From contig JAKLKB010000089.1 in the NCBI GenBank assembly GCA_023150835.1, forward strand, positions 1 through 37,393: 37,393 nt of DNA, given 5' to 3'. Source of the stretch: Myxococcota bacterium (GTDB taxonomy: Bacteria; Myxococcota_C; UBA6777). The notes under the pieces were generated by a model, which did no database searches, was not told the DNA's origin, and saw nothing but the letters and a program-made list of their open reading frames with translations. Below, in pieces: positions 18,928 through 36,072 of the stretch; position 1 is the first letter of the stretch, and each line of letters begins with the position of its first letter. The position numbers and the translations under genes are program-made.

Positions 18928-19235
18928 CGAAGATCCTCCACACCGAAGCTCATGCCTGTTCTCGATTTGTGTCAAAGCGTGACGCCACTCCATGCGATCT
19001 GTCAAAGATTACGGGAAGGTGTTATACACCCCTCCTGCTTAGATGCAACGATCCACGCGCCTTATGGAAACATGAAACATCTTGTTGCACGAAAATTTTG
19101 CGACACACCCACAAACGGCTACACTCGGCCTTTGCGCGTGGTACAGGTTCAGGATGTTCTTGTACAGCCCCGCCCCCCCACAAAACCGTTCGGCACCTCT
19201 CCTACTCCACCGAACCCACAAAGGAATCACCTCGG

Positions 19236-20501
19236 ATGCCCTTGCGCACACCACCTATCCAACACGCCCACGCAAACCCACAACGCACCCCCAAAGCGCA
19301 ACCTCCCTCCATAGCGCAGCGTACCTCCCGCACATCGGCCCGACATCCCCTCCCGCTCGTTGCTGTCTTACGAAGCCCCATCCAGACCGTTGCATCGGCG
19401 TTATGCGTGTTGCTGCTTTTTTTGGGGGAACGCGCAGAGGCTCATCCTCCCAAGACGCTCACCGAAAAAGGCCCTTTTCATCCCTGCCAACAGCCACCCG
19501 ACGGGATGATCTGCATCTCGGGAGGCGCTTACATCCAAGGCAGCGATCGCAACGCCCATCACAACGACGCTCGGCTGCGAGCGGAGTCTCCGCGCCACCG
19601 CGTGATCCTCCAAACCTTTTACATCGACAAAACCGAAGTCACCAACCAAGACTACCTCAAGTGCATGAAAGCGGGATGGTGCCAACCGCCCTCCTATTGG
19701 GCCAATCCGCGAGGTACGATGTGGCCGCGTTTTCGCACGCCCACCCGCCCTTTTGTGCGCGCAACATGGGATATGGCTGCCGAATACTGCCGCTACGTTG
19801 GAAAGCGCCTATTGACCGAAGCCGAGTGGGAAGCCGCAGCACGCGGTCCCAAGGGCGAAACCTACCCTTGGGGAAACCAGCCACCAAGCTGCAAATGGGC
19901 CAACTACCGCGTCGAACCGTCTCATACTTCTTATCCCCCTTCTCGCAAGATGCGCTTTTGCCCTAGGCCCGATGCAAAAGACCAAACACCGCTTCCTATT
20001 GGACAAGATCAAACATGGCCTGTCGGTATCACTCCGCCTTTTCGCGGGATCTACGATATGGCGGGCAACGGCTACGAATGGGTTCAAGACTTCTATGACC
20101 CCGACGCTTACGCCTGTGCTTCCACCGATCCCGCCCAATGCACCCGCATCGCCCCCAAAGGCCCTTGCGATGGCAAAGGCAGCGTCTGTACCGTGATGCG
20201 CGATCACCTCTGGATCTGGCAAAAAGAACGCGGCCAACAAGGCCCACACGCCGCAACACCCCGTTGGAAGCGCATCAAACGAAAACTCCCCCGCAGCCGA
20301 CGCTTTGTATTTCGCAAACGCATCCTCAAAGGCGGATCTTGGTGGTGGTTTGCCGATCACCTGCGCGGCGCATGGCGACGACCTGATGGCCCCTACACAG
20401 GAAATCACCGCCTCAGCATCCGTTGTGGTAGCTCTACTCACGCCCCTCAGATCCTCCCTGCCCGCGATGTCCAACTCAAACACCAACGCCCCCGCCGCTA
20501 A
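19236..20501 (+). CDS. Exported FGE-sulfatase (SUMF1-like) domain protein
   Basis: FYIDKTEVTN, KRLLTEAEWEAAARG, YPWGN, YDMAGNGYEWVQD, KGGSW; hydrophobic stretch ending AEA resembles a signal peptide. Start uncertain (ATG after AAGGA chosen). Confidence 0.85.
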   Translation: MPLRTPPIQHAHANPQRTPKAQPPSIAQRTSRTSARHPLPLVAVLRSPIQTVASALCVLLLFLGERAEAHPPKTLTEKGPFHPCQQPPDGMICISGGAYIQGSDRNAHHNDARLRAESPRHRVILQTFYIDKTEVTNQDYLKCMKAGWCQPPSYWANPRGTMWPRFRTPTRPFVRATWDMAAEYCRYVGKRLLTEAEWEAAARGPKGETYPWGNQPPSCKWANYRVEPSHTSYPPSRKMRFCPRPDAKDQTPLPIGQDQTWPVGITPPFRGIYDMAGNGYEWVQDFYDPDAYACASTDPAQCTRIAPKGPCDGKGSVCTVMRDHLWIWQKERGQQGPHAATPRWKRIKRKLPRSRRFVFRKRILKGGSWWWFADHLRGAWRRPDGPYTGNHRLSIRCGSSTHAPQILPARDVQLKHQRPRR

Positions 20502-20510
20502 CTTCCACCG

Positions 20511-21299
20511 CTAATCCTCCAACCAATCGGCTTCTTCAAGCGACTTTCCCGCCAACAAGCGTCGAGGATTCGTCAACAACAAACGCTCGGCCTCTTGTTC
20601 CCCCACAAGCTTCACCAGCTTAATCAACATCTTGTGCAGATAATCCTTGTGTTCTGGAGCCTTATGAAGATCCGTCGCTGCGATGTGGAACCACCCCTCC
20701 TTCAACATCTGCACCGCCAAGCGTTGAACATACACCCCCGTCTCGCCCACAATCGACGGTAGATCCAACTGCATCCACCACCCCGCCCGAATCCATTCAC
20801 GCGCCATCTCTGGACGCGCCTGCAACGCTTCATACCGTTCTGGATGCGCAAGGATCGGCTTGATCCCCTTCATCTGCAACTGAAACGCCAACTCCTTCAT
20901 CACCCGCAACGTATCGCGAATCGAAAACTCGATCAAAAGATACGCACCTTCCCCACCCACCGGCACATAAGCACCTGTGTCGATCCATTCCATCAAACCG
21001 TCTTGATAATAGATCTCGCACCCCGGCAAGATCCGCAACGGCAAGCTGTGCGCGTCTGCCTGCTCTTGGGCTGCCTGCACCAAGGCCCGAATCACTGGCG
21101 CGGAACTCTCCGTAAACAGCGGATGATGTAAGTGAGACGACACGGACACCGTCGAATATCCCGCAGCCACAAAACTCCGCATCATCTCCAAACTCTCCGC
21201 CCAATCCCCCGCACCATCGTCTATCCCGGGCAATACGTGGTTATGGATATCGATCATCCCTGCCGGAAGTTTCACTTCGCGCGAAAACCAACTCATCAA
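20511..21299 (-). CDS. CpsB/CapC family PHP-fold tyrosine-protein phosphatase
   Basis: IDIHNHVLPGIDDGA, PGCEI, YLLIEF, PILAHPERY, ATDLH. Confidence 0.92.
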   Translation of the reverse strand: MMSWFSREVKLPAGMIDIHNHVLPGIDDGAGDWAESLEMMRSFVAAGYSTVSVSSHLHHPLFTESSAPVIRALVQAAQEQADAHSLPLRILPGCEIYYQDGLMEWIDTGAYVPVGGEGAYLLIEFSIRDTLRVMKELAFQLQMKGIKPILAHPERYEALQARPEMAREWIRAGWWMQLDLPSIVGETGVYVQRLAVQMLKEGWFHIAATDLHKAPEHKDYLHKMLIKLVKLVGEQEAERLLLTNPRRLLAGKSLEEADWLED

Positions 21300-21337
21300 T
21301 CTCCCATCCCTTCACTCAAAGACAACCAATGGTATAC

Positions 21338-21428
21338 TGCGCACATCGCCCGTCCATCGACATCTTCATCTCTTTTCAGCCGATGGATCGTTGCGCACAT
21401 CGCCGCTCAATCGGCATCTTCATCTCTT
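21338..21428. repeat. Imperfect 37-bp direct repeat duplicating a gene 3' end
   Basis: TGCGCACATCGCC...ATCG(A/G)CATCTTCATCTCTT at 21338 and 21392. Confidence 0.8.
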
Positions 21429-23287
21429 AGGTCTGCGATATCACGCCGTTGGATCTTCATCCGCTGTTTCAGCGCCTTCAACTCGCCCTCGATATCTGCC
21501 TCGCGAAACTTGGACTCCATCGCCTCCATGTCAAGAGCCTGCGCCTTTTCACCCCCTCGCCACAAAGCCCTCTCATCCGAAGATTCTTTCACCCCCACCT
21601 CCCCGCGCTGTACTTGCCCTCCACCGATACTCCCTTGCCTCGGCGCGTTTCTTCCCTCAGTCATTTCGCCACGAACTCCTAACCACGATCTTTCCCGACT
21701 ATCCGCAGGTTTCACACGCTCAAGAATCGATATCTTTTCTCGACGCAACCGACGCAATGCCTCTTCGATAGACTCTCTCTCCCGCAAGTATCGCTCTTTC
21801 TGCTCATTCGCTTCATCGTACAAACGCTGATCTCCCATCCCTTGCGCCCGTTCTACTCGATCTCCCCACCGCTCGACCTGCTCCCATAACTGATCAAAAC
21901 GCTCCACCAGCCGCTTTTCTCGTAAGATCAACGCCGCCAAAGCATCCCGCAACCTCTCCATCCCCCTTCCACTCGGATCTCCCGCTGCCTTCTCTTCTCC
22001 AACGATATCTTCGTACCACCTCTCTTCCCCGATATCTTCGTACCAACTCTCTTCCCCAACCCCTTGCGATCTCCCGTCTGTCAACAATCGCCTCGGATCG
22101 GTGATCGCCTCGACTCCCGCAGGCAACGACCGCCGCAGCGAAACAAGCTCCCCTGACAACAGCGCACGATCTCGCTCCTCGATCTTCTCCCGATTCACCG
22201 CCGTTTCCACCAACAACGATACCCAATCCTCACTTGTTCGCGCTGAAAACGCACCGCTTATCCTCCGCCGCATCTCTTCCAATCGACTTCCCTCCGATAC
22301 CTCCGCGATCTGCGCCGCAAGCGCCTGCTCCCGCACCCACAATCCCATTCCCTCCTCACAGAGATATCCACCGTTGTTCCGCTCTTCTCGATTGCTCGCC
22401 TCCCAAAACAACGTCGGTACACCCGCACCCAACGCCCCATACATCCGACACAACGAAGCTCCCATCACACACAGATCCACCGCCGACCACAACCTCTCCC
22501 AAGGCACTCCTCCACCCAACATCTTCGCCCGTAACCCCGCACGCTTCGCCGCTTCACGCAACCGACCCTGCGCCTCTGCTCCCTCTCCACCATACACCAA
22601 CCAACGAAACGACCGCACCAACGACATCTGAAAACACACACCCTCCCAGTCCGATGCACCCGAAAGATCCACCAAACCCCATGCCTCACATACCTCCAAA
22701 CCCAACGCCTCACACGCCTCTTCGCGCCCTATCTTCCGCCCTCCGCAACCCAACGGGACCCCCATCACCCGCACCTTCTCTCGCGCAATCCCACCCTCCA
22801 CCAGCCCATCCTCCACTCCCCCATGCACCACCACATAACGCCCCACACCCGGCTGCAACCACGACCGATGCAACACCAGATCCCCCAACGCCCCCACCAC
22901 CAACCCTCCCCAACGGCCCTCCCGCTTCAACGCCAACAACGGCAACAACACCATCGGATGAAACGCCACCACCACCTCCGAACGATCCACCTCCAAAAAA
23001 GCCTCCAACGCCGAAAAACCATACGCCCCTCGCAATAACGACCACGGCCCCTCTCCCGCCCACAACGCTCCCTTCTCATACAACGCCACTCCCCACCCCG
23101 GCAAACTATCCAACACCCGACCCATCCCCCGCTGAAACGCTTGCCCCCAAACCCCCGATACACTGCCCTCCAACTCCCGATACGCCACCTCCCAACCACC
23201 CATCCGCTCGCCCAACGCCTCTCCCCACGCTCGCGCCCAACGCTCCTCCTCTCCTCCACCACGCCAAAACCAAAAACCTACCCGCAT
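21407..23287 (-). CDS. Degenerate MGDG-synthase/UgtP-like (GT28) glycosyltransferase fused to a PspA/IM30-like C-terminal coiled coil
   Basis: N-part 'VVVAFHP...GDLVLHRSWLQPGVGRYVV...GIAREKVRVMGVPL...EERNN' follows the MGDG-synthase pattern. C-part 'VERWGDRVERAQGMGDQRLYDEANEQK...MESKFREADIEGELKALKQRM' follows the PspA pattern. GAGGAG SD before the ATG at 23287. Confidence 0.7.
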   Translation of the reverse strand: MRVGFWFWRGGGEEERWARAWGEALGERMGGWEVAYRELEGSVSGVWGQAFQRGMGRVLDSLPGWGVALYEKGALWAGEGPWSLLRGAYGFSALEAFLEVDRSEVVVAFHPMVLLPLLALKREGRWGGLVVGALGDLVLHRSWLQPGVGRYVVVHGGVEDGLVEGGIAREKVRVMGVPLGCGGRKIGREEACEALGLEVCEAWGLVDLSGASDWEGVCFQMSLVRSFRWLVYGGEGAEAQGRLREAAKRAGLRAKMLGGGVPWERLWSAVDLCVMGASLCRMYGALGAGVPTLFWEASNREERNNGGYLCEEGMGLWVREQALAAQIAEVSEGSRLEEMRRRISGAFSARTSEDWVSLLVETAVNREKIEERDRALLSGELVSLRRSLPAGVEAITDPRRLLTDGRSQGVGEESWYEDIGEERWYEDIVGEEKAAGDPSGRGMERLRDALAALILREKRLVERFDQLWEQVERWGDRVERAQGMGDQRLYDEANEQKERYLRERESIEEALRRLRREKISILERVKPADSRERSWLGVRGEMTEGRNAPRQGSIGGGQVQRGEVGVKESSDERALWRGGEKAQALDMEAMESKFREADIEGELKALKQRMKIQRRDIADLRDEDAD

Positions 23288-23556
23288 CGGCTCCTCCTCT
23301 CTTTTCCAACTCCACTCCCACCGCATCCTAGGCTCCTTACTCCACCTTTGCAAACCTCCACGCTCTGCCTACCATCGGAAAAATCATCAAAAAAGTCTTG
23401 CCATCTACAGCCTTATCGGTTATCTCTTTGACTTGGTTTTTGGCCCATCACTCTATCACTATCTTTTCGTGGGTAACGTCCTTCTTCCTCAACTCTATTT
23501 TTATCTCATCCCAAAGGACACCACCACCCACACCTTCCAAGAAAGGAGACCAAACC

Positions 23557-24081
23557 ATCAGTAAGGAAAAAGAAAAAGAACCCCGCATCAACGCTCGTAT
23601 CCGTGTCAAAGAAGTCCGCCTCATCGGCGCTGACGGCGAGCAGATCGGTATCGTCCCCACCTTGCGCGCTCTTCAAATGGCCGAAGAACAAGGTCTTGAC
23701 CTCGTCGAAGTCGCTGAAACGGCTACCCCCCCCGTTTGCAAGCTCATGGACTTCGGACAATTCAAGTACCAACAAAAGCAAAAAGCCAAAGAAGCCCGCA
23801 AAAACGCCACCCAAGTCCAAATCAAAGAAGTCCAATTGCGGCCCAAAACCGACGACCACGACCTCGACTTCAAAGTCAATCACATCTTCCGCTTTCTCGA
23901 AGAAGGCGACAAAGCCAAACTCACCGTCAAATTCCGTGGCCGCGAGATCGCCCACAAAGATCGCGCTCTCCTCCTCCTCGAAAAAGTCATCGCCGACATC
24001 GGCGACGAAGGTATCGTCGAGTCCCCACCCCGCATGGAAGGGCGCACCATGATCGCTATCATCGCGCCCAAAAAGAAATAA
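23557..24081 (+). CDS. infC: Translation initiation factor IF-3 (ATC start)
   Basis: RINARIRVKEVRLIG, LDLVEVA, PPVCKLMDFG, FRGRE. SD AGGAG at 23544-23548 precedes an in-frame ATC, with no in-frame ATG before the conserved core. Confidence 0.96.
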   Translation: MSKEKEKEPRINARIRVKEVRLIGADGEQIGIVPTLRALQMAEEQGLDLVEVAETATPPVCKLMDFGQFKYQQKQKAKEARKNATQVQIKEVQLRPKTDDHDLDFKVNHIFRFLEEGDKAKLTVKFRGREIAHKDRALLLLEKVIADIGDEGIVESPPRMEGRTMIAIIAPKKK

Positions 24082-27549: not shown

Positions 27550-29759
27550 ATGGACCTACACCGCAAACAACGATCCCTCCCAACACCTCGACCTTTTTTC
27601 ACACTCGCCGCGATCTGGCTTGCGCTCGCTGCCATGCTTGTTTTCCCCCATGCTTGCGTTGTCTCCAGTCCTTCCGTCGCCTGCCTCCCTTGCCCTTGCG
27701 CAAACGGCCTCACCCGCGCAAACGGCCTTTGTGTCCCCCCCGAACAACAAACCAACCCGCTCTCCTTTTGCTTTGCCGACGGCCAAACCTCGGACGGACT
27801 CCTCACAGAACCCCTCCATCAAGAAACCACACCCAAAGATGCCGCCACACCCGAAGAGATCACTCCCTCCGAAGATGCCGCCACACCCGAAGAGATCACT
27901 CTCTCCGAAGAGGCCACCACACCCGAAGAATCCACCCTGATCGAACCCAGCCCCGAAGAGGCCACCACCGAACCCAACCCAGAGATCTCCCCAGATACCC
28001 GTTGCACCGATGATACAGACTGCCCCACAGGCTCGATCTGCCTCACCGAAAAAGGCGAATGCGCCCCAAGCGAATGCACCCCAACTCGCCCATGCAACGG
28101 CTTTCTCGCCTGCATCAACGGACGCTGCCAAGCCTGCCAAGTCGACGATCAATGCAAACCTCGTGGCACAGGGTATTTCTGCCTCGATGGGATCTGCATC
28201 CGCAAAGCAGTCCTCACCAACAACGTCTATGCGTGGAGCGACGGAACCTACGCCTCCGATTGTATGCAGTATCGCTACCCCACCCTCGGCTTTGAACCCG
28301 CCTCACAAGACGGCGTCTACCGCATCCAACCTCCCGGTGAATCCCCCTTCCTCACCCACTGCATGATGCGCTACGCAGGTGGCGGATGGACCTTAACTTT
28401 ACGCATCGACGGCCAAAAACAAAACTTCTCCTACAGCGAACCCCTCTGGACCAACCGCAACTCCACCGCCAACATCGCCTCCCCCGACGCCCTCGCCAAA
28501 GAAGAAGTCAAACCACCCAGCTATTGGAGCCTCCCCTTCCAGCAAATCCTCCTCCACAACGCTTCCTCCCCCAAAAGCACCCCCTTGATCCTCAACGCTA
28601 CCGCCGCCTCAACCCTCGCTTNNNNNNNNNNNNNNNNNNNNNNNNNCCCAACAACACAGAACTCCCTACATCCCCCACTTCCACCCCCCCCCAACCTCCC
28701 CGCAGCGCTTGGCGCGCCTTCTTCCCCAAATCTTCCCTCCAAAAGTACTGCAACCAGATCTTCGTCAACTTCTCCGCCACCGACCTCAACGCCTCTTTCG
28801 TCAACCTCCGCCTCGGCTTTGTCACCGATGGCGACTCCACTTGCAAAACACCCAACGGCTTTATCGGCATCGGGGGCCGAAGCCGCTTGCTCCCCTCGAT
28901 CTCTGCCGGAAACCTCTGCACCAACTCCAGCTCTTGCGAAACCAACGACACCACCAAACCCGCCTTGATCGGCCTCTATATCCGCGATCTCCCTCCCATC
29001 AAATCCACCCTCAAGCGCGTCCTCGGTGTCCTTCAGCCCTCCACAGGCCCCATCCCACGCTCCTGCCTCGCTTATCGTATGCCCCCACACAACCACACCA
29101 ACAACGACAACTATTGGATACAGCCCGCCAACTCCCCACTCCCCATGATCACCTTCTGCGAAATGACCCGACACGGCGGCGGATGGACCGCACTCCTCAA
29201 AACCAACAACACCGCCCAATTCGCTTATGACTCCGCCCTCTGGACCAACACCGCCACCCTCAACGAAAGCCCCACCGTCAACCCCGTATTCACCGACGCC
29301 TACAAACTCAACACCTTCCACTCCTTTCCCATCGAAGAACTTCTCGTCAGCCTACACAACACCAACTCCTCTGCACTCTACGTCAACTACTTCTCCTTCC
29401 TGTTTTCGGCCTCTTCCATGCTCAACGCCATCCAAATCCCCCGCCGCTTCGACAACGAAGACCCCAGACCTTGGCGCGACCTCCTCCCCGATACCAACCT
29501 CCACTCAGGATGCACCCAGATCGGCACCACCCTCACACCCGCCGCCAACAACAACTACGCTCATCTCCGCCTCGGCTTAATCGCCGCCCCCGATCAACCT
29601 CTCCTTTGCACCATCGCCAGTTCCTACATCGGTCTCGGAGCCAAGCTCTCCGCTTGCAACGTCAACAACGCCCCATCCACCGGCCATGCCATCGGTTGCA
29701 TTACGACCGGTGCCGCACCCCAAATCACCCCCGCCACCGGCTACCTCTTCGCCCGATAA
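27550..29759 (+). CDS. Putative lipoprotein with acidic linker, Cys-rich repeats and two fibrinogen-like domains (spans the assembly gap)
   Basis: Hydrophobic leader ending PHAC; Cys-rich modules; 'DGVYRIQP...THCMMRYAGGGWTL' before the gap and 'YWIQP...TFCEMTRHGGGWTAL' after it. The frame changes only across the N run. Confidence 0.75.
27838..27930. repeat. 36-bp tandem repeat (about 2.5 copies) encoding an acidic linker
   Basis: DAATPEEITPSE-DAATPEEITLSE-EATTPEE. Confidence 0.85.
28622..28646. other. Assembly gap (25 N)
   Basis: Run of N in the sequence. Confidence 1.
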
Positions 29760-29818
29760 TCCGCCAACACCACTATACCAAATACCTCCCCACGATCACA
29801 TAACGGGCAGATTTCGTA

Positions 29819-31649
29819 TCATCGCTTCCCTTGATGCTTTTTCAACCATGCCTCGATCTTCTCTTGCCGCGCAAACCGCCCTCGCATCCGCATCACCAAA
29901 CGCTTCGCATCCTCCTCCCGACCCTGCGATACCCATAGTTCCGCCAGATCCAACACCAACCTTGATGACACCTTCGGCAACCACAAGCCTTTCCGCCAAT
30001 ACTTCTCCGCCTCCCCCAAACGCCCTCGCATCCGTTCGATATGCCCCAGTCCCCACAACGGCGTCACACTCTTGTCCCCTCCCACCATCCCCAACACCCG
30101 CAAAAACAACTCCTCTGCTCGCTTCAAATGCGACTCCCGTTCCGCCGATCCCTTCGGCAGATCCCATGCCCGATACAAACATACCAACCCCAAACTATTC
30201 CACCCCTGAGGCCGCAACGGGGCCACTTCCACCGCCACCCGCAACAACTTCTCCGCCTCCTCAAAACGCCCCCGCTGCACCGCGATCGCTCCCAAATTCG
30301 TCGTCGCACCGATATGACGCGGATCTTGCCGATACACATACAGCCACAACGCCACATCACTCTCCCACGCACCCACATAACGATGCGTCTCCATACCCCA
30401 CGCCAACAACGCCGGCAACACCGCCCATCCCAGCCACTTCACCTTCACCGCCATCCTCTCCAACAACATCGCACCACCCCACGCACACACCACCACAACC
30501 AACAACAAAAACCGATCCGCATGATGCTGATTCACCCGCAAGATCCCCACATACGGCAACAACACACACGCCAAACCCACCACAAACACCCACAACATCG
30601 GCATTTTCGCCCCACTCCGCCCCGCCCACAACATCCCTCCCAACACCAACACACCCAACCAAGGCCACGGATCCATCCACCAAGACTCATACAAAAAACG
30701 ACCCTCATAACTCGGCGAAAGATCCCACGGCAGCAACCACCTCACCACCGACCACAACGGCATCCCCAACGCATGAAACAACCTCCTCCACAACGGATCT
30801 CCCACCGCTCCTCCCACCTCCACGATCTGATTCCGCACACCCACCCACAACGTCCAACTCACCCAACATCCCGCCATCACCACCACCACCGCATAACCCT
30901 TCCACCACCGACGCCAAAGCTCTCGACCCCTCCACCACCACCAACCGCCCAACATCGGCACAACCACCACACCCGCACCCTTGCTCAACAATGCACCCAC
31001 ACTCCACACTCCCACCCACCACATCCACCCCCTCCCCTCACCCGAAACCTCCGATGCCTCGCCCTCTTCACCCAATACCCGCGATGACTTCCCCTTCTTC
31101 TCCTTACCCTCTTTTCCGCGCTCTCCCTTCTCTTTTCCGCGCTCTCCCTTCTCTTTTCCGCGCTCTCCCCTCCCTTCTCCCGCCCTCCGCCACACCTCCA
31201 ACGCTCGATCCGCTCCCCACAACGCCAACAACACACACAGCCCATACAACAAGTCTTTCCGACCACTCACCCACGCCACAGGCTCCACACACAACGGATG
31301 CAACCCCACCATCCCCACACCCACCCAAGCCCACCCTCGCCCCAACCCCATCCGACGCCCCAACAACCACACCCACAACAAACACATCACAAACAACCAC
31401 ACATTCGTCCCATGAAACGTCCTCGCTTGCATCCCACACCTCTCCCTTCCACGCTGCTCGCGGCGACAACAACTCACCCCATGCCCCTCCCTCCCCTTGC
31501 GCGATCTGCCAAAACACCCGACGCTCTAAGTATTTCTTGTCATCCCACTTCAACAGCGGATACCCCCACACCCGACCGTACAACCACAACACTCCCAACA
31601 CCACACAACAACCCCAACCCCACACACTCCATCTCTCTTTCCATCCCAT
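29819..31649 (-). pseudogene. TMTC-like GT-C membrane glycosyltransferase with C-terminal TPRs, frameshifted near 31433 (real lesion or assembly error)
   Basis: 5' frame has a TM helix plus 'KWDDKKY'; 3' frame has 'FHGTN', 'HPLCVEPVAWVSGRKDLL', 'ALLSKG', 'ADRFL' and TPRs. The frames switch at ...GTGTGGGATG... Confidence 0.75.
31109..31169. repeat. 21-bp tandem repeat (about 3 copies)
   Basis: CTCTTTTCCGCGCTCTCCCTT units, encoding GERGKEK on the minus strand. Confidence 0.9.
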
Positions 31650-31694
31650 CTCTCGCCTCGCTTCAATATCATCAAAAATGGCACAATCAGTTCA

Positions 31695-31720
31695 TTTTTT
31701 GTTTGTTTACAAATAAAAAA
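31695..31720. promoter_or_regulatory. AT-rich palindrome, candidate operator in a divergent promoter region
   Basis: TTTTTTGTTTGT-TT-ACAAATAAAAAA (11 of 12 pairs). Confidence 0.45.
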
Positions 31721-34317: not shown

Positions 34318-36072
34318 ATGCCCGATAGAATCAACCACCGCCCCAACCTCCCACCCATCACCCAGCCCTCCACAAGCCACACCTCTCCTACAAACAACAC
34401 CTCTCCTACAAACAACACCTCTCCCACAAGCCACACCTCTCCCACAAACAACACCACTCCCACAGGCGGCATCACCGCCGAGATGCAACGCACTCTCGGA
34501 CTTGCACAAGCCAACCACACCTCCCCTGTCCTCAAAACATGGTTTGCCCCGTACGAAGACACCCGTAAGCCCGAACTTGCCCTTCTTGACGAAGTGATCG
34601 CCGCCCGAAAAGCCGATCCCCGCACCTTTCAAGAAGGCCAAAACCCCTACAAGATCAACTACGCCGTCTACAACATCTCCAGCCAAGAGATCCTCGAAAA
34701 ACTCGCCGAAGCCAACCGCGCTGGCGTCGATGTCCAAGTCCTAATCGAAGAGGACCAACTCGACCCCAAAAAAACATGGAACGACGGCGATGACTACTTG
34801 ATCCGCAACGGCTTTGAATTCGCCCCCGATCACAAACAGCTCACCCCCGAAGAACGCCACACCGCCGACCTCATCGGCATCAAAAACTCCACCCTCATGC
34901 ACCTCAAAACCCGCATCTTCGAGTACCCCGACCCCCAAACAGGCGATCTCAAACAAACCGTCCTCACGGGCTCGATGAACCCGGGCGAAAGCGCCGTCCA
35001 CAACGACGAAAACCTCATGCAGATCAACGATCCCCGCGTCGCTCGCCGCTACATCGAGATGTACGAAGCCGTCCGCGACGGCAAAGAGATCAAAAACGAA
35101 TTTGACCCCCAATCCCCGATCAACGTGATGTTCACAGGCGCACCCGTCAAAGACGGCCAGTCCGTCACACGCCAGATCTTCAACATGATCGACCAAGAAA
35201 AAGAAGCCATCTTCCTCAGCGTCTTCACCCTGCGCAACCTCACCACCGACTCCGACCGCCAAAATCTCGTCGACAAACTCAAAGCCGCCCACGATCGCGG
35301 TGTCCCCGTCGTCGTGATCACCGACAAAAAACAATCCGACGGCGTCGACGCCCAAGGCAACCGCACTTTCAGCGACGACCAGACCGAAGACCTCCTCCAA
35401 AAAGCAGGCATCCCCACCTACGAAGCCCTCAACCCTTCGGGGCCTTTCAATGCCATGCACGCCAAAAGCGCCATCTTCGGCCTCACCGACATGAAGGTGA
35501 TCACCGACACAGGAAACTGGACCAAAGCCGCACTCAGTGGCCGAGGCTCCCGCTACGCCCAAAACGAAGAATCCTATCTCTTCGTCGACTCTGGCAAACT
35601 CGACAACAACCAAACAGGGATGCGCTACCTCGGAAATTTCTTGAATCTCTTGCGCGCTTATGCCCCCCAAAATCCCGACCAACCCGCAGCCGAAGAACTC
35701 ATCAACAAACTCTCCAGCCATCCCGCATGGCCCCGTGTCAACGTCGACTTCTCCGTCATGGCGCACACCTTCATGGGCCAAGATGTCTATATCACAGGCA
35801 ACCATCCCGCCGTCGGCAACTGGACCCAAGACGGTCCCGGCCTCAAACTCAATACCAGCCCGGGACGTTATCCTTTTTGGGAATCAGGCGGGGCCTTGGA
35901 ACTGCCCTTCGGTGCGCAGTTTGAGTACAAGATCGTCAAGCGCGAACCCAACGGCTCCCTCCAATGGGAAGCCGGACCCAACGCCTTCTTGATCGTCGAT
36001 CCCACCGATATCCGCTCCGGCCAAGGCCTCGGCAACACCCTTCTGCGTTCCGACGACTTCACACCCCCATGA
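34318..36072 (+). CDS. Phospholipase D superfamily protein with C-terminal CBM20 starch-binding domain
   Basis: Two HxK motifs (MHLKTRIFE...TGSMN; MHAKSAIFG...DTGNW). C-terminal 'GQDVYITGNHPAVGNW...YPFW...FEYKIVK...WEAGPN' matches CBM20. Confidence 0.85.
   Translation: MPDRINHRPNLPPITQPSTSHTSPTNNTSPTNNTSPTSHTSPTNNTTPTGGITAEMQRTLGLAQANHTSPVLKTWFAPYEDTRKPELALLDEVIAARKADPRTFQEGQNPYKINYAVYNISSQEILEKLAEANRAGVDVQVLIEEDQLDPKKTWNDGDDYLIRNGFEFAPDHKQLTPEERHTADLIGIKNSTLMHLKTRIFEYPDPQTGDLKQTVLTGSMNPGESAVHNDENLMQINDPRVARRYIEMYEAVRDGKEIKNEFDPQSPINVMFTGAPVKDGQSVTRQIFNMIDQEKEAIFLSVFTLRNLTTDSDRQNLVDKLKAAHDRGVPVVVITDKKQSDGVDAQGNRTFSDDQTEDLLQKAGIPTYEALNPSGPFNAMHAKSAIFGLTDMKVITDTGNWTKAALSGRGSRYAQNEESYLFVDSGKLDNNQTGMRYLGNFLNLLRAYAPQNPDQPAAEELINKLSSHPAWPRVNVDFSVMAHTFMGQDVYITGNHPAVGNWTQDGPGLKLNTSPGRYPFWESGGALELPFGAQFEYKIVKREPNGSLQWEAGPNAFLIVDPTDIRSGQGLGNTLLRSDDFTPP
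34372..34461. repeat. 18-bp tandem repeat (5 copies) encoding T(S/N)(H/N)T(S/T)P
   Basis: ACAAGCCACACCTCTCCT / ACAAACAACACCTCTCCT-type units. Confidence 0.9.

Follow-up and report, generated by a model that had tools for sequence, protein, structure and literature searches.

We analysed a 37,393-nucleotide (nt) contig of a Myxococcota bacterium (NCBI GenBank assembly GCA_023150835.1, contig JAKLKB010000089.1; this whole stretch is hereafter the window) and found that one of its minus-strand genes, at 21407–23287, encodes a glycosyltransferase (GT) domain of family 28 (GT28) type, most likely a pseudoenzyme, fused to a truncated region that sequence profiles relate to PspA/IM30. [quoted passage not shown] A preliminary description of this DNA had proposed the fusion from a single open reading frame (ORF) and four quoted motifs. 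The frame, of 626 codons plus a stop, and all four motifs are present where it had placed them, and Pfam, Foldseek and profile evidence bear out the joining of a GT28 domain resembling monogalactosyldiacylglycerol (MGDG) synthase to a PspA/IM30-like region. Both domains are members of known superfamilies; their combination is what appears to be new.

Sequence profiles relate the C-terminal region to PspA and Vipp1

Three alignments were used: a 32-member full-length family alignment (A2), a profile of the C-terminal parts only, from nine loci (A5), and a profile built on nine canonical PspA sequences of the window's phylum and of other genomes (A6). Searched against PDB sequences, the A2 profile matches nine distinct Vipp1/PspA sequences at E values of 9.2e-8 to 4.3e-6, over chain residues ~36–217, while the A5 profile gives 14 matches at E ≤ 1, of which 12 are Vipp1, PspA or IM30 (best 2.8e-6) and the other two are TMED9 (~0.03). 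In profile–profile comparison with hhalign, A5 aligns to A6 at a probability of 96.8% (E 2.8e-10, 72 columns). The helical hairpin alone (30 rows from A2) aligns to PspA columns 45–124 (96.3%, E 1.5e-9, 80 columns), and the last 47 columns alone (32 rows) align to PspA columns 197–232 (88.1%, E 3.1e-6). The hairpin and last-helix matches are collinear with PspA.

The motif W-x2-R-x3-A-x3-G-D-x2-L-x3-A-x3-K occupies residues 474–497 (21797–21868) and stands in the register of the canonical PspA consensus of A6, WExxAxxAVxxGDDxLAKEALxRK, sharing with it the W and, counted from it, A at +7, G at +11, D at +12, L at +15, A at +19 and K at +23. The last helix carries the family motif E-x-(R/K)-F-R-x-(M/A)-(E/D)...L-x-x-L-K-x-R, and the segment MESKF...KALKQRMK spans residues 590–611 (21455–21520); within A2, L603 is conserved in at least 90% of members and L606 is invariant. 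The profiles score PspA specifically, and by this sequence comparison the C-terminal region is homologous to PspA/Vipp1 beyond the resemblance of a generic coiled coil.

Single-sequence searches give lower scores. The Pfam PspA_IM30 model reaches 11.1 bits (E 0.3) and stays below its cut-off of 33.9. A phmmer search of PDB sequences with the 203 C-terminal residues returns 13 matches at E ≤ 10, nine of them Vipp1/PspA (best of these E 0.0045); the top match, KIF13B (E 0.0022), lies mostly on the low-complexity linker. The sub-threshold Pfam score, together with structure aligners that rank the hairpin level with coiled coils unrelated to it and with the extreme composition of the gene, is what one would expect of a generic coiled coil, a decaying relic or a mis-joined ORF with no relation to PspA. 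We regard this as highly improbable. It conflicts with the profile–profile matches of the hairpin (E 1e-9 to 3e-10) and of the last helix (E 3e-6), with their collinearity and the W...GD..L...A...K register, and with a PDB profile search in which 12 of 14 matches are PspA/Vipp1; it conflicts also with the retention of a single ORF across over 100 clusters, some of whose records bear the names of cultured Bradymonas sediminis and Lujinxingia, and with a ratio of nonsynonymous to synonymous substitution rates (dN/dS) of at most 0.30 in all structured parts.

The relationship does not extend to a whole PspA. Helix alpha0 has no counterpart: the alignments start at PspA residue ~41–45, upstream of which the fusion protein has a disordered linker and the GT domain. 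Likewise, PspA columns ~125–196, corresponding to alpha3/alpha4, have no counterpart in the hhalign matches. Because the hairpin and last-helix matches are collinear, the region can be described, in terms of sequence, as a PspA domain from which two parts are gone: alpha0 with the beginning of alpha1 (the first ~40 residues) and alpha3/alpha4 (the ~125–196 segment). The PspA coiled coil of the preliminary description therefore stands as a statement of homology, and not as one of a complete PspA.

Comparison of protein-language-model features for residues 438–626 places TIGR04376/PF27865 and 'hercynine metabolism protein' clusters nearest (0.92 and 0.90), with PspA/IM30 clusters at 0.89–0.90; we treat these values as leads only. 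Both groups consist of stand-alone proteins (115–170 amino acids), those of TIGR04376/PF27865 (CHP04376) being short and PspA-like, and PspA models fit the fusion family better: TIGR04376 is matched by 6 of the 32 members at E ≤ 0.01 (best 5.8e-4), the PspA model TIGR02977 at a best E of 2.1e-7.

In linker 1, the family-wide (F/Y)-E-x-I-G motif is represented by WYEDIG (22028–22045), whose E417 and G420 recur in at least 90% of A2 members. A 27-nt tandem duplication (two copies, three mismatches) at 22001–22054 on the minus strand doubles the W-Y-E-D-I of this linker, which is single in an 84%-identical relative (P0003). At the other end of the region, canonical PspA proteins of the phylum (L001:1495-2259, L029 and L030) have an extension at the C-terminus that finishes in an acidic stretch followed by Trp (…RDEERW, …RDSDW, …RDENW). 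Several fusion members, including P0006 and P0010, end alike (…KDEEW, …KDEEF), and the window protein ends in …DEDAD with no aromatic residue. The acidic-aromatic tail common to canonical PspA and fusion members may be a docking peptide.

The GT28-like domain is most likely a pseudoenzyme

The N-terminal domain matches the Pfam MGDG_synth model (PF06925) above its cut-off (E 7.5e-10; 39.6 bits, cut-off 25) and the NCBIfam diglucosyl-diacylglycerol synthase model at E 2.6e-12, far under the equivalog cut-off of that model. The B. subtilis-type UgtP 9wde_A is matched at E 1.8e-6 with the single sequence and at 2.7e-38 with the family profile. The AlphaFold2 (AF2) model, made from the 32-row family alignment, has a mean predicted local distance difference test score (pLDDT) of 78.4, and residues 1–387 reach ~90 except for 41–80. 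The model shows the two Rossmann-like domains of a GT-B fold, and the best Foldseek match is Arabidopsis MGD1 (4x1t/4wyi; E 3.5e-13; target-normalised template-modelling score 0.72–0.73), followed by other GT-B proteins including MurG. Of the three Pfam models to which the preliminary description had pointed, MGDG_synth is thus matched, PspA_IM30 remains sub-threshold, and Glyco_tran_28_C (PF04101) gives no match at E ≤ 1 for the window protein.

The motifs needed for catalysis are replaced. Specifically, the loop that reads G-x-G-H in active GT28 enzymes reads GGGEE, placing Glu13 at the position of the catalytic His; the catalytic base of MGD1 is His155, according to passages of PMC7419546. 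The nucleotide-sugar motif, KPGG(I/L)T(L/S)xE in UgtP and in the fusion member P0009, reads GASLCRMYG, and the second donor motif, P-G-Q-E-x-x-N, reads SNREERN. Because the catalytic His and the UDP-sugar-binding loop are gone, the domain is most likely a pseudoenzyme whose activity has been lost. The erosion that the preliminary description had seen in GGGEE and GASLCRMYG is confirmed as a loss of motifs, but not as random decay of one gene: the loss is family-wide, and GGGEEERW is kept in a 41%-identical relative.

Family columns point the same way. G-x-G-H is kept in one of the 29 members that have the N-terminus and K-P-G-G in one of 32, both times P0009; P0011 retains the motifs in part, and the replacement residues at the donor site vary clade by clade. 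In all 20 fetched stand-alone GT28 relatives of ~360–400 residues, read by eye, the loop is of G-x-G-H type and the donor motif of (K/H)-(P/A)-G-(G/A) type. The remaining alternative for this domain is an active glycolipid synthase that uses Glu13 as its base together with a non-canonical donor site, its tail localising or regulating the enzyme. We consider this improbable, since the donor Lys, the Gly-rich loop, Thr and Glu are all replaced (KPGG..T..E to GASL..R..G), Glyco_tran_28_C is unmatched here and matched in only 3 of 32 members, and variation of the replacement residues between clades is what is expected at a site freed from constraint. On its side are the intact and confidently predicted fold, the conservation of GGGEEERW, the remaining part of (Q)-E-E-R-N, the standing of the gene as the only MGDG_synth-type gene in its genome, and P0009, whose full set of canonical motifs implies that active fusions probably exist.

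Residues 41–80 have low pLDDT, and five Trp residues fall within the 44-residue stretch 42–85. In MGD1, a flexible loop of the N-domain mediates membrane association and capture of diacylglycerol (DAG), according to the same passages of PMC7419546. We infer that the Trp-rich region of the fusion protein corresponds in position to this membrane/DAG loop.

The fusion is retained among distant relatives

A HMMER scan of 1.84 billion representative sequences returned 320 proteins at E ≤ 1e-3. Members were chosen from 150 listed hits by length and by the reach of the alignment into the tail, with close relatives added; the ~118 remaining hits were inspected in part. At least 31 further cluster representatives have the same architecture, and P0012 was recognised as an additional member. 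Two hits were dropped before family counts were made: P0004, whose C-terminus is out of frame or truncated, and P0141, a 727-residue tandem double GT with no tail. A search for homologous proteins with the A2 profile yielded only five close relatives already in hand, and a search for related loci with alignment A1 gave one near-identical contig, from a metagenome-assembled genome. The fusion is retained down to ~20% identity, so the preliminary description's proviso that it might be absent from all relatives does not apply.

Within A2, the last helix is present in 32 of 32 members and the hairpin in 30 of 32, the W and R of the hairpin being of invariant type. MGDG_synth is matched by 24 of 32 members, and PspA_IM30 by 11 of 32 at E ≤ 0.01 (best 7.5e-7). 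Three variants lacking the hairpin (P0010, P0012 and P0015) retain F-E-x-I-G and the last helix. One genome, G004, carries this hairpin-less form as the syntenic ortholog (L011:5348-6799, which P0015 appears to represent), and G003, of the same genus, has the full form.

In a quick maximum-likelihood tree of the GT domains, a single branch with a Shimodaira–Hasegawa-like approximate likelihood ratio (SH-aLRT) value of 100 separates the 32 fusion proteins from the 20 stand-alone proteins, with P0009, P0011 and P0012 nearest the stand-alone side; this tree is a quick search drawn with midpoint rooting, with many rows of deviant composition and a hand-picked outgroup. The tree is consistent with a single fusion into an active enzyme that afterwards ceased to be catalytic.

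The GTDB phylum of the window organism comprises six species genomes, and the fusion gene is found in four of the six at E ≤ 1e-20. A search with a seven-member sub-alignment gave at least 128 clusters at E ≤ 1e-10, whose source names include Bradymonas sediminis, Lujinxingia vulgaris, L. litoralis, Persicimonas sp., Bradymonadaceae and Myxococcota; most family members are drawn from metagenomes. As judged from these matches, the family is conserved and extends to culturable predatory bacteria (Bradymonadales). The 128 clusters are annotated as 'hypothetical protein' or 'diacylglycerol glucosyltransferase N-terminal domain-containing protein', and JGI annotations read 'processive 1,2-diacylglycerol beta-glucosyltransferase', with a 136-residue C-terminal fragment called 'phage shock protein A'.

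Selection was measured against the same-genus ortholog (G002) over 491 aligned codons, with dS of 0.22–0.37 across the region. The whole fusion gene has a dN/dS of 0.30, the GT domain 0.29, the hairpin 0.18 and linker 2 0.59, and the last 36 codons contain no nonsynonymous and three synonymous changes. Among neighbouring genes, the values are 0.02–0.06 for the nuo genes and CpsB and 0.18 for the FGE-sulfatase gene. The fusion gene is under purifying selection yet evolves fast.

Gene boundaries, composition and transcription

The coding sequence runs on the minus strand from an ATG at 23287 to a stop codon at 21407–21409, and its parts are listed in Table 1. The gene caller chose an in-frame upstream ATG at 23326, giving a 639-residue version (P0002). 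We prefer 23287 because the N-terminus of the relatives lies at the MR(V/M/I)(G/S)FW position, that is, at the Met encoded there. A promoter and terminator scan of 20400–23700 gave nothing above shuffled sequences.

Table 1. Features of the fusion gene and of its downstream neighbour in the window
Feature	Coordinates	Strand	Evidence
Whole coding sequence, GT28-like pseudo-glycosyltransferase (most likely) with truncated PspA/IM30-like region	21407..23287	-	translation; same architecture in relatives; dN/dS 0.30 versus same-genus ortholog
Shine-Dalgarno-like sequence GAGGAGGAG, 3 nt ahead of the ATG	23291..23299	-	sequence reading
GT-B domain (GT28, MGDG-synthase/UgtP-like), residues 1–387	22127..23287	-	Pfam; AF2; Foldseek; UgtP match
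Glycine loop GGGEE (residues 10–14), at the G-x-G-H position of active GT28 enzymes	23246..23260	-	column comparison with P0009 GSGH
Degenerate nucleotide-sugar motif GASLCRMYG (residues 276–284)	22436..22462	-	alignment to UgtP 9wde_A; family columns
Linker 1, low-confidence, second half acidic, with family-wide (F/Y)-E-x-I-G motif	21968..22126	-	pLDDT 37–48; short strand 416–419
PspA-type helical hairpin, helices 441–484 and 487–525, corresponding to residues ~41–120 of canonical PspA	21713..21967	-	AF2 pLDDT 89–98; hhalign; PDB profile matches
Linker 2, low-complexity, disordered, at the PspA alpha3/alpha4 position (residues 526–577)	21557..21712	-	pLDDT 38–44; length and sequence vary among relatives
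C-terminal helix (residues 578–624) with acidic tail end, matching the H5-end motif of PspA	21410..21556	-	hhalign; pLDDT 77–96 in C-terminal model
CpsB/CapC-type PHP tyrosine phosphatase, same-strand downstream neighbour	20511..21299	-	Pfam CpsB_CapC E 2.5e-48

The composition of the gene is extreme, with a GC skew at third codon positions of +0.80 and with Gly, Glu and Arg making up 38% of residues. The surrounding DNA is strongly strand-skewed: GC skew in 5-kb segments is -0.39 to -0.45 at 20–35 kb of the window, compared with a genome-wide (G000) median of 0.14 and maximum of 0.455 for the absolute value. At third codon positions, the skew is +0.6 to +0.8 in the minus-strand genes (CpsB and the fusion gene), -0.43 to -0.86 in the plus-strand genes of the same stretch, and near 0 to +0.3 in the nuo genes (12.8–18.9 kb). 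In this genus, the richness of the fusion protein in Gly, Glu, Arg and Trp is probably a product of the strand bias. A long Pro/Thr-rich ORF on the opposite strand (22234–23331) was rejected as an antisense shadow of the very G-rich coding strand.

Contigs of 151–217 nt from three RNA libraries of two studies match the window exactly at 21552–22047 and 21209–21395; within the fusion gene, they are confined to its 3′ half. Because DNA can contaminate such libraries, they are a weak hint of transcription. Near-identical DNA (80–100% of sampled words) occurs in 14 public runs of six coded studies, labelled as activated sludge, sludge, wastewater or aquatic metagenomes, with one run unlabelled and three possibly the source of the window.

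A proposed membrane-anchored scaffold

We propose, at about even confidence, that the dead GT head anchors a minimal ESCRT-III-like unit, hairpin plus H5, at the inner membrane and acts as a scaffold. The protein would be a cytoplasmic, peripheral inner-membrane protein of two modules. The first (residues 1–387) would be a GT28 fold that no longer catalyses and that keeps the Trp-rich loop used by active relatives for seating in the membrane or capturing diacylglycerol; the second (~441–626) would be a shortened alpha1/alpha2 hairpin with an H5-like helix, attached through a disordered linker. In Vipp1 filaments, hairpin and H5 together make up what a passage of PMC7619361 calls a 'conserved hairpin-H5 interface'. 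Since the head keeps the flexible loop and the tail keeps hairpin and H5, we propose the GT head as a substitute for alpha0 in anchoring to membrane or lipid, and the tail as the assembly unit, which would supply the hairpin–H5 contact. Its partner in assembly could be other copies of itself or the canonical PspA of the genome, and the assembly would act as a scaffold tethered to the membrane, serving to maintain it or to protect against stress. The lipid sensing and the polymer put forward in the preliminary description are likewise proposals.

Several observations weigh against this proposal. The missing alpha0, alpha3 and alpha4 are parts used by known PspA/Vipp1 polymers, and the hairpin-less variants mean that self-polymerisation through the hairpin cannot be essential in every member. 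The PspA_IM30 cut-off is reached by none of the 32 members (best 29.4 bits against 33.9). Foldseek with the C-terminal model gives no match at E ≤ 1e-3, its ranks 1–13 all being Vipp1/PspA at E 5.6e-3 to 6.5e-2. VIA-align against 48,161 chains, with Z of 10–11.7, ties the ESCRT-III family (Shrub, Snf7, Vipp1, CHMP, PspA and Vps24) with unrelated coiled coils (Rad50, SMC, chemoreceptors and designed bundles). Because the fold alone does not discriminate, the case for homology is built on the sequence profiles. Constraint on the gene is looser than on its nuo and CpsB neighbours, and identity between genera is 23–24% for the fusion protein, against 46–47% for CpsB and 56–66% for IF3. Glu13 could in principle serve as a base, and the loss of activity is for this reason inferred. 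Furthermore, neighbourhoods differ by clade (CpsB in one, a flippase-type gene and the DnaK system in another) with no universal partner evident, and hrcA-grpE-dnaK-dnaJ is a housekeeping operon, so its adjacency may be incidental. A complex prediction with three copies of residues 12–203 of the 203-residue C-terminal piece (alignment A3, run without controls) scored 0.00 and speaks neither for nor against assembly.

The main rival to the scaffold is an adaptor that does not polymerise. The H5-like helix, with or without the hairpin, would dock on the hairpin of canonical PspA and recruit, nucleate or cap PspA at membrane marked by the GT head, comparable to the membrane anchors known for the PspA family. 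The hairpin-less members, which keep F-E-x-I-G and the last helix, favour the view that for at least some members the last helix suffices, for instance through docking onto PspA, and the genome with such a variant (G004) has two canonical PspA genes. The last helix is also the most conserved piece of the protein, without a nonsynonymous change in 36 codons, and it matches the C-terminal motif of PspA, which touches neighbouring hairpins in Vipp1 filaments (passages of PMC7619361). The similar acidic-aromatic ends of the phylum's canonical PspA proteins and of several fusion relatives would suit docking as well, whereas the window protein lacks the terminal aromatic residue. We judge the adaptor tentative and clearly less probable than the scaffold.

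Genome context

The fusion gene diverges from infC-rpmI-rplT, and a gene for a CpsB/CapC-type PHP phosphatase lies 108 nt downstream; beyond it come a convergent gene with an FGE-sulfatase domain and then nuoA–G. Synteny of the fusion gene and CpsB holds in two genera of the phylum (G002, G003 and G004), the second genus (G003 and G004) has infC, fusion and CpsB in unchanged order, and a gene resembling DUF368/undecaprenyl-phosphate translocases is also retained nearby. This neighbourhood raises the alternative of an accessory protein for polysaccharide synthesis or tyrosine phosphorylation, working with the phosphatase and using its coiled coil only for oligomerisation or docking. The conserved same-strand pair and the nearby translocase-like gene would agree with such a role. 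We hold it to be quite improbable: adjacency to CpsB is confined to the small phylum and absent from the six Bradymonadales-type loci examined for it, and infC-rpmI-rplT, HU and the nuo block are housekeeping genes, so that the linkage may simply reflect an arrangement of genes passed down by descent.

A six-frame scan of the 7.56-Mb genome with PF04012 found one canonical pspA (E 1.4e-50), on another contig, and the sole other match at E ≤ 1 is the C-terminus of the fusion protein (E 0.011). Searched with the A2 profile, the genome gave two weak GT-B matches (C115 and C47), and its canonical PspA was missed at E ≤ 0.01; no other MGDG_synth-type gene was found at E ≤ 0.01. The genome has three LPG_synthase_TM genes, all on other contigs and none adjoining the fusion gene.

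Different neighbours accompany the fusion gene in Bradymonadales-type metagenome loci, of which 11 were found and eight examined for context. A membrane protein of the LPG_synthase_TM (MprF flippase) type is encoded directly downstream in all six loci that have downstream DNA, and grpE, with hrcA, dnaK and dnaJ, lies within two genes beyond in five of these six. Upstream, five loci have a gene with a receiver domain, and five have a second, small GrpE-family gene (L014:6914-7474, L013:6380-6982 and the equivalents in L016–L018). The product of the latter (186–246 residues, Pfam GrpE E 1.3e-26) has an N-terminal hydrophobic helix and is additional to the normal downstream grpE; it may be a membrane-tethered nucleotide-exchange factor. 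In chloroplasts, the Hsp70 cpHsc70-1 binds the C-terminal tail of VIPP1 and promotes disassembly of its oligomers, as described in PMC12798727. The flippase-type and DnaK/GrpE neighbours in Bradymonadales would fit a membrane-stress role and recall Hsp70-driven VIPP1 disassembly; a position next to a housekeeping chaperone operon is weak evidence.

A bolder version of the scaffold, which we rate as possible and on balance unlikely, is an unrecognised ESCRT-III-like branch. Here the dead synthase head would replace alpha0 and direct the protein to membranes by lipid specificity, hairpin and H5 would polymerise, a membrane-tethered GrpE with DnaK would take a Vps4-like part in remodelling the assembly, and an MprF-type protein would be the partner, together a self-contained repair or remodelling module in Myxococcota-like bacteria.

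Elsewhere in the window, the FGE-sulfatase (SUMF1-like) gene at 18969–20501 on the plus strand, which converges on CpsB, would have a Pro/Thr/Arg-rich N-terminal extension of ~175 residues if it begins at a GTG, its true start being uncertain. Two plus-strand ORFs of 457 and 676 amino acids (28386–29759 and 29686–31716) have extreme composition and no Pfam match; the longer contains 0.6% Gly and 0.4% Glu, with a coding-strand GC skew of -0.61. An unusual combination occurs in the protein of a plus-strand gene at 34318–36072, which has two PLD-like (PLDc_2) stretches and, at its C-terminus, a CBM_20 domain of the starch-binding kind.

Relation to known systems and meaning

The fusion protein resembles PspA, Vipp1 (IM30) and LiaH (PF04012) in the hairpin-tip motif W...A...GD..L...A...K, in the same register, and in the C-terminal motif F-x-x-(L/M)-E...L-x-x-L-K, in the same order; Vipp1 and PspA are the relatives identified among solved structures. 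It differs from them in lacking alpha0 and the first ~40 residues, in a shorter hairpin, in a disordered linker of ~50 residues in place of alpha3/alpha4, and in its N-terminal 387-residue GT-B domain, all members scoring below the Pfam cut-off. With the GT28 synthases MGD1 (4wyi/4x1t) and the processive diacylglycerol glucosyltransferase UgtP/YpfP (9wde), it shares the GT-B fold and the MGDG_synth N-domain, and it likewise has a flexible N-domain loop at the position of the MGD1 membrane/DAG loop (passages of PMC7419546). In place of the catalytic His it has Glu, it lacks K-P-G-G...T..E and a Glyco_tran_28_C match, and it adds a PspA-like tail to what are stand-alone enzymes elsewhere. The likeness to the VIPP1–cpHsc70-1 pair, in which cpHsc70-1 is a Vps4-like disassembly factor, is one of gene adjacency alone, in Bradymonadales, where the fusion gene lies beside grpE, dnaK and dnaJ and an additional GrpE-like gene with a transmembrane anchor; no chaperone genes are near the locus of the window.

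Rare PspA fusions have been catalogued by Ravi et al. 2024, among them PspA_IM30-NlpC/P60, PspAA and tandem PspA (passages of PMC11237479). Like the fusion described here, they combine a module of PspA type with a domain presumed to work on membrane lipids (passages of PMC11237479); unlike them, it has as partner an N-terminal GT28 domain, most likely a pseudoenzyme, and its PspA part is truncated and sub-threshold, so that architecture surveys based on Pfam would miss it. Full-text literature searches returned no paper describing a PspA-GT28 fusion, in agreement with the preliminary description, which knew of no characterised protein of this architecture; supplementary tables lie outside those searches and might list it. 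[quoted passage not shown] The fusion family thus appears to be undescribed so far. Its PspA part is sub-threshold in every member tested, and this accounts for the annotation of members as 'hypothetical' or 'diacylglycerol glucosyltransferase'.

The family touches two open questions: which parts of PspA suffice, and how these polymers are targeted to particular membranes. It offers a natural experiment in which only the hairpin and an H5-like helix have been kept, the membrane helix would have been exchanged for a lipid enzyme that is most likely dead, and some members have lost the hairpin too. Homologues in culturable Bradymonadales make it accessible. A review of galactolipid synthases (PMC5809773) raises, as speculation, a cooperation of MGD1-MGDG platforms with IM30/VIPP1, and the fusion physically joins the two families whose cooperation in thylakoid lipid traffic is only speculated there. 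If the ESCRT-III-like branch were real, such a 'Rosetta-stone' fusion would argue that GT28 synthases and PspA/Vipp1 cooperate elsewhere.

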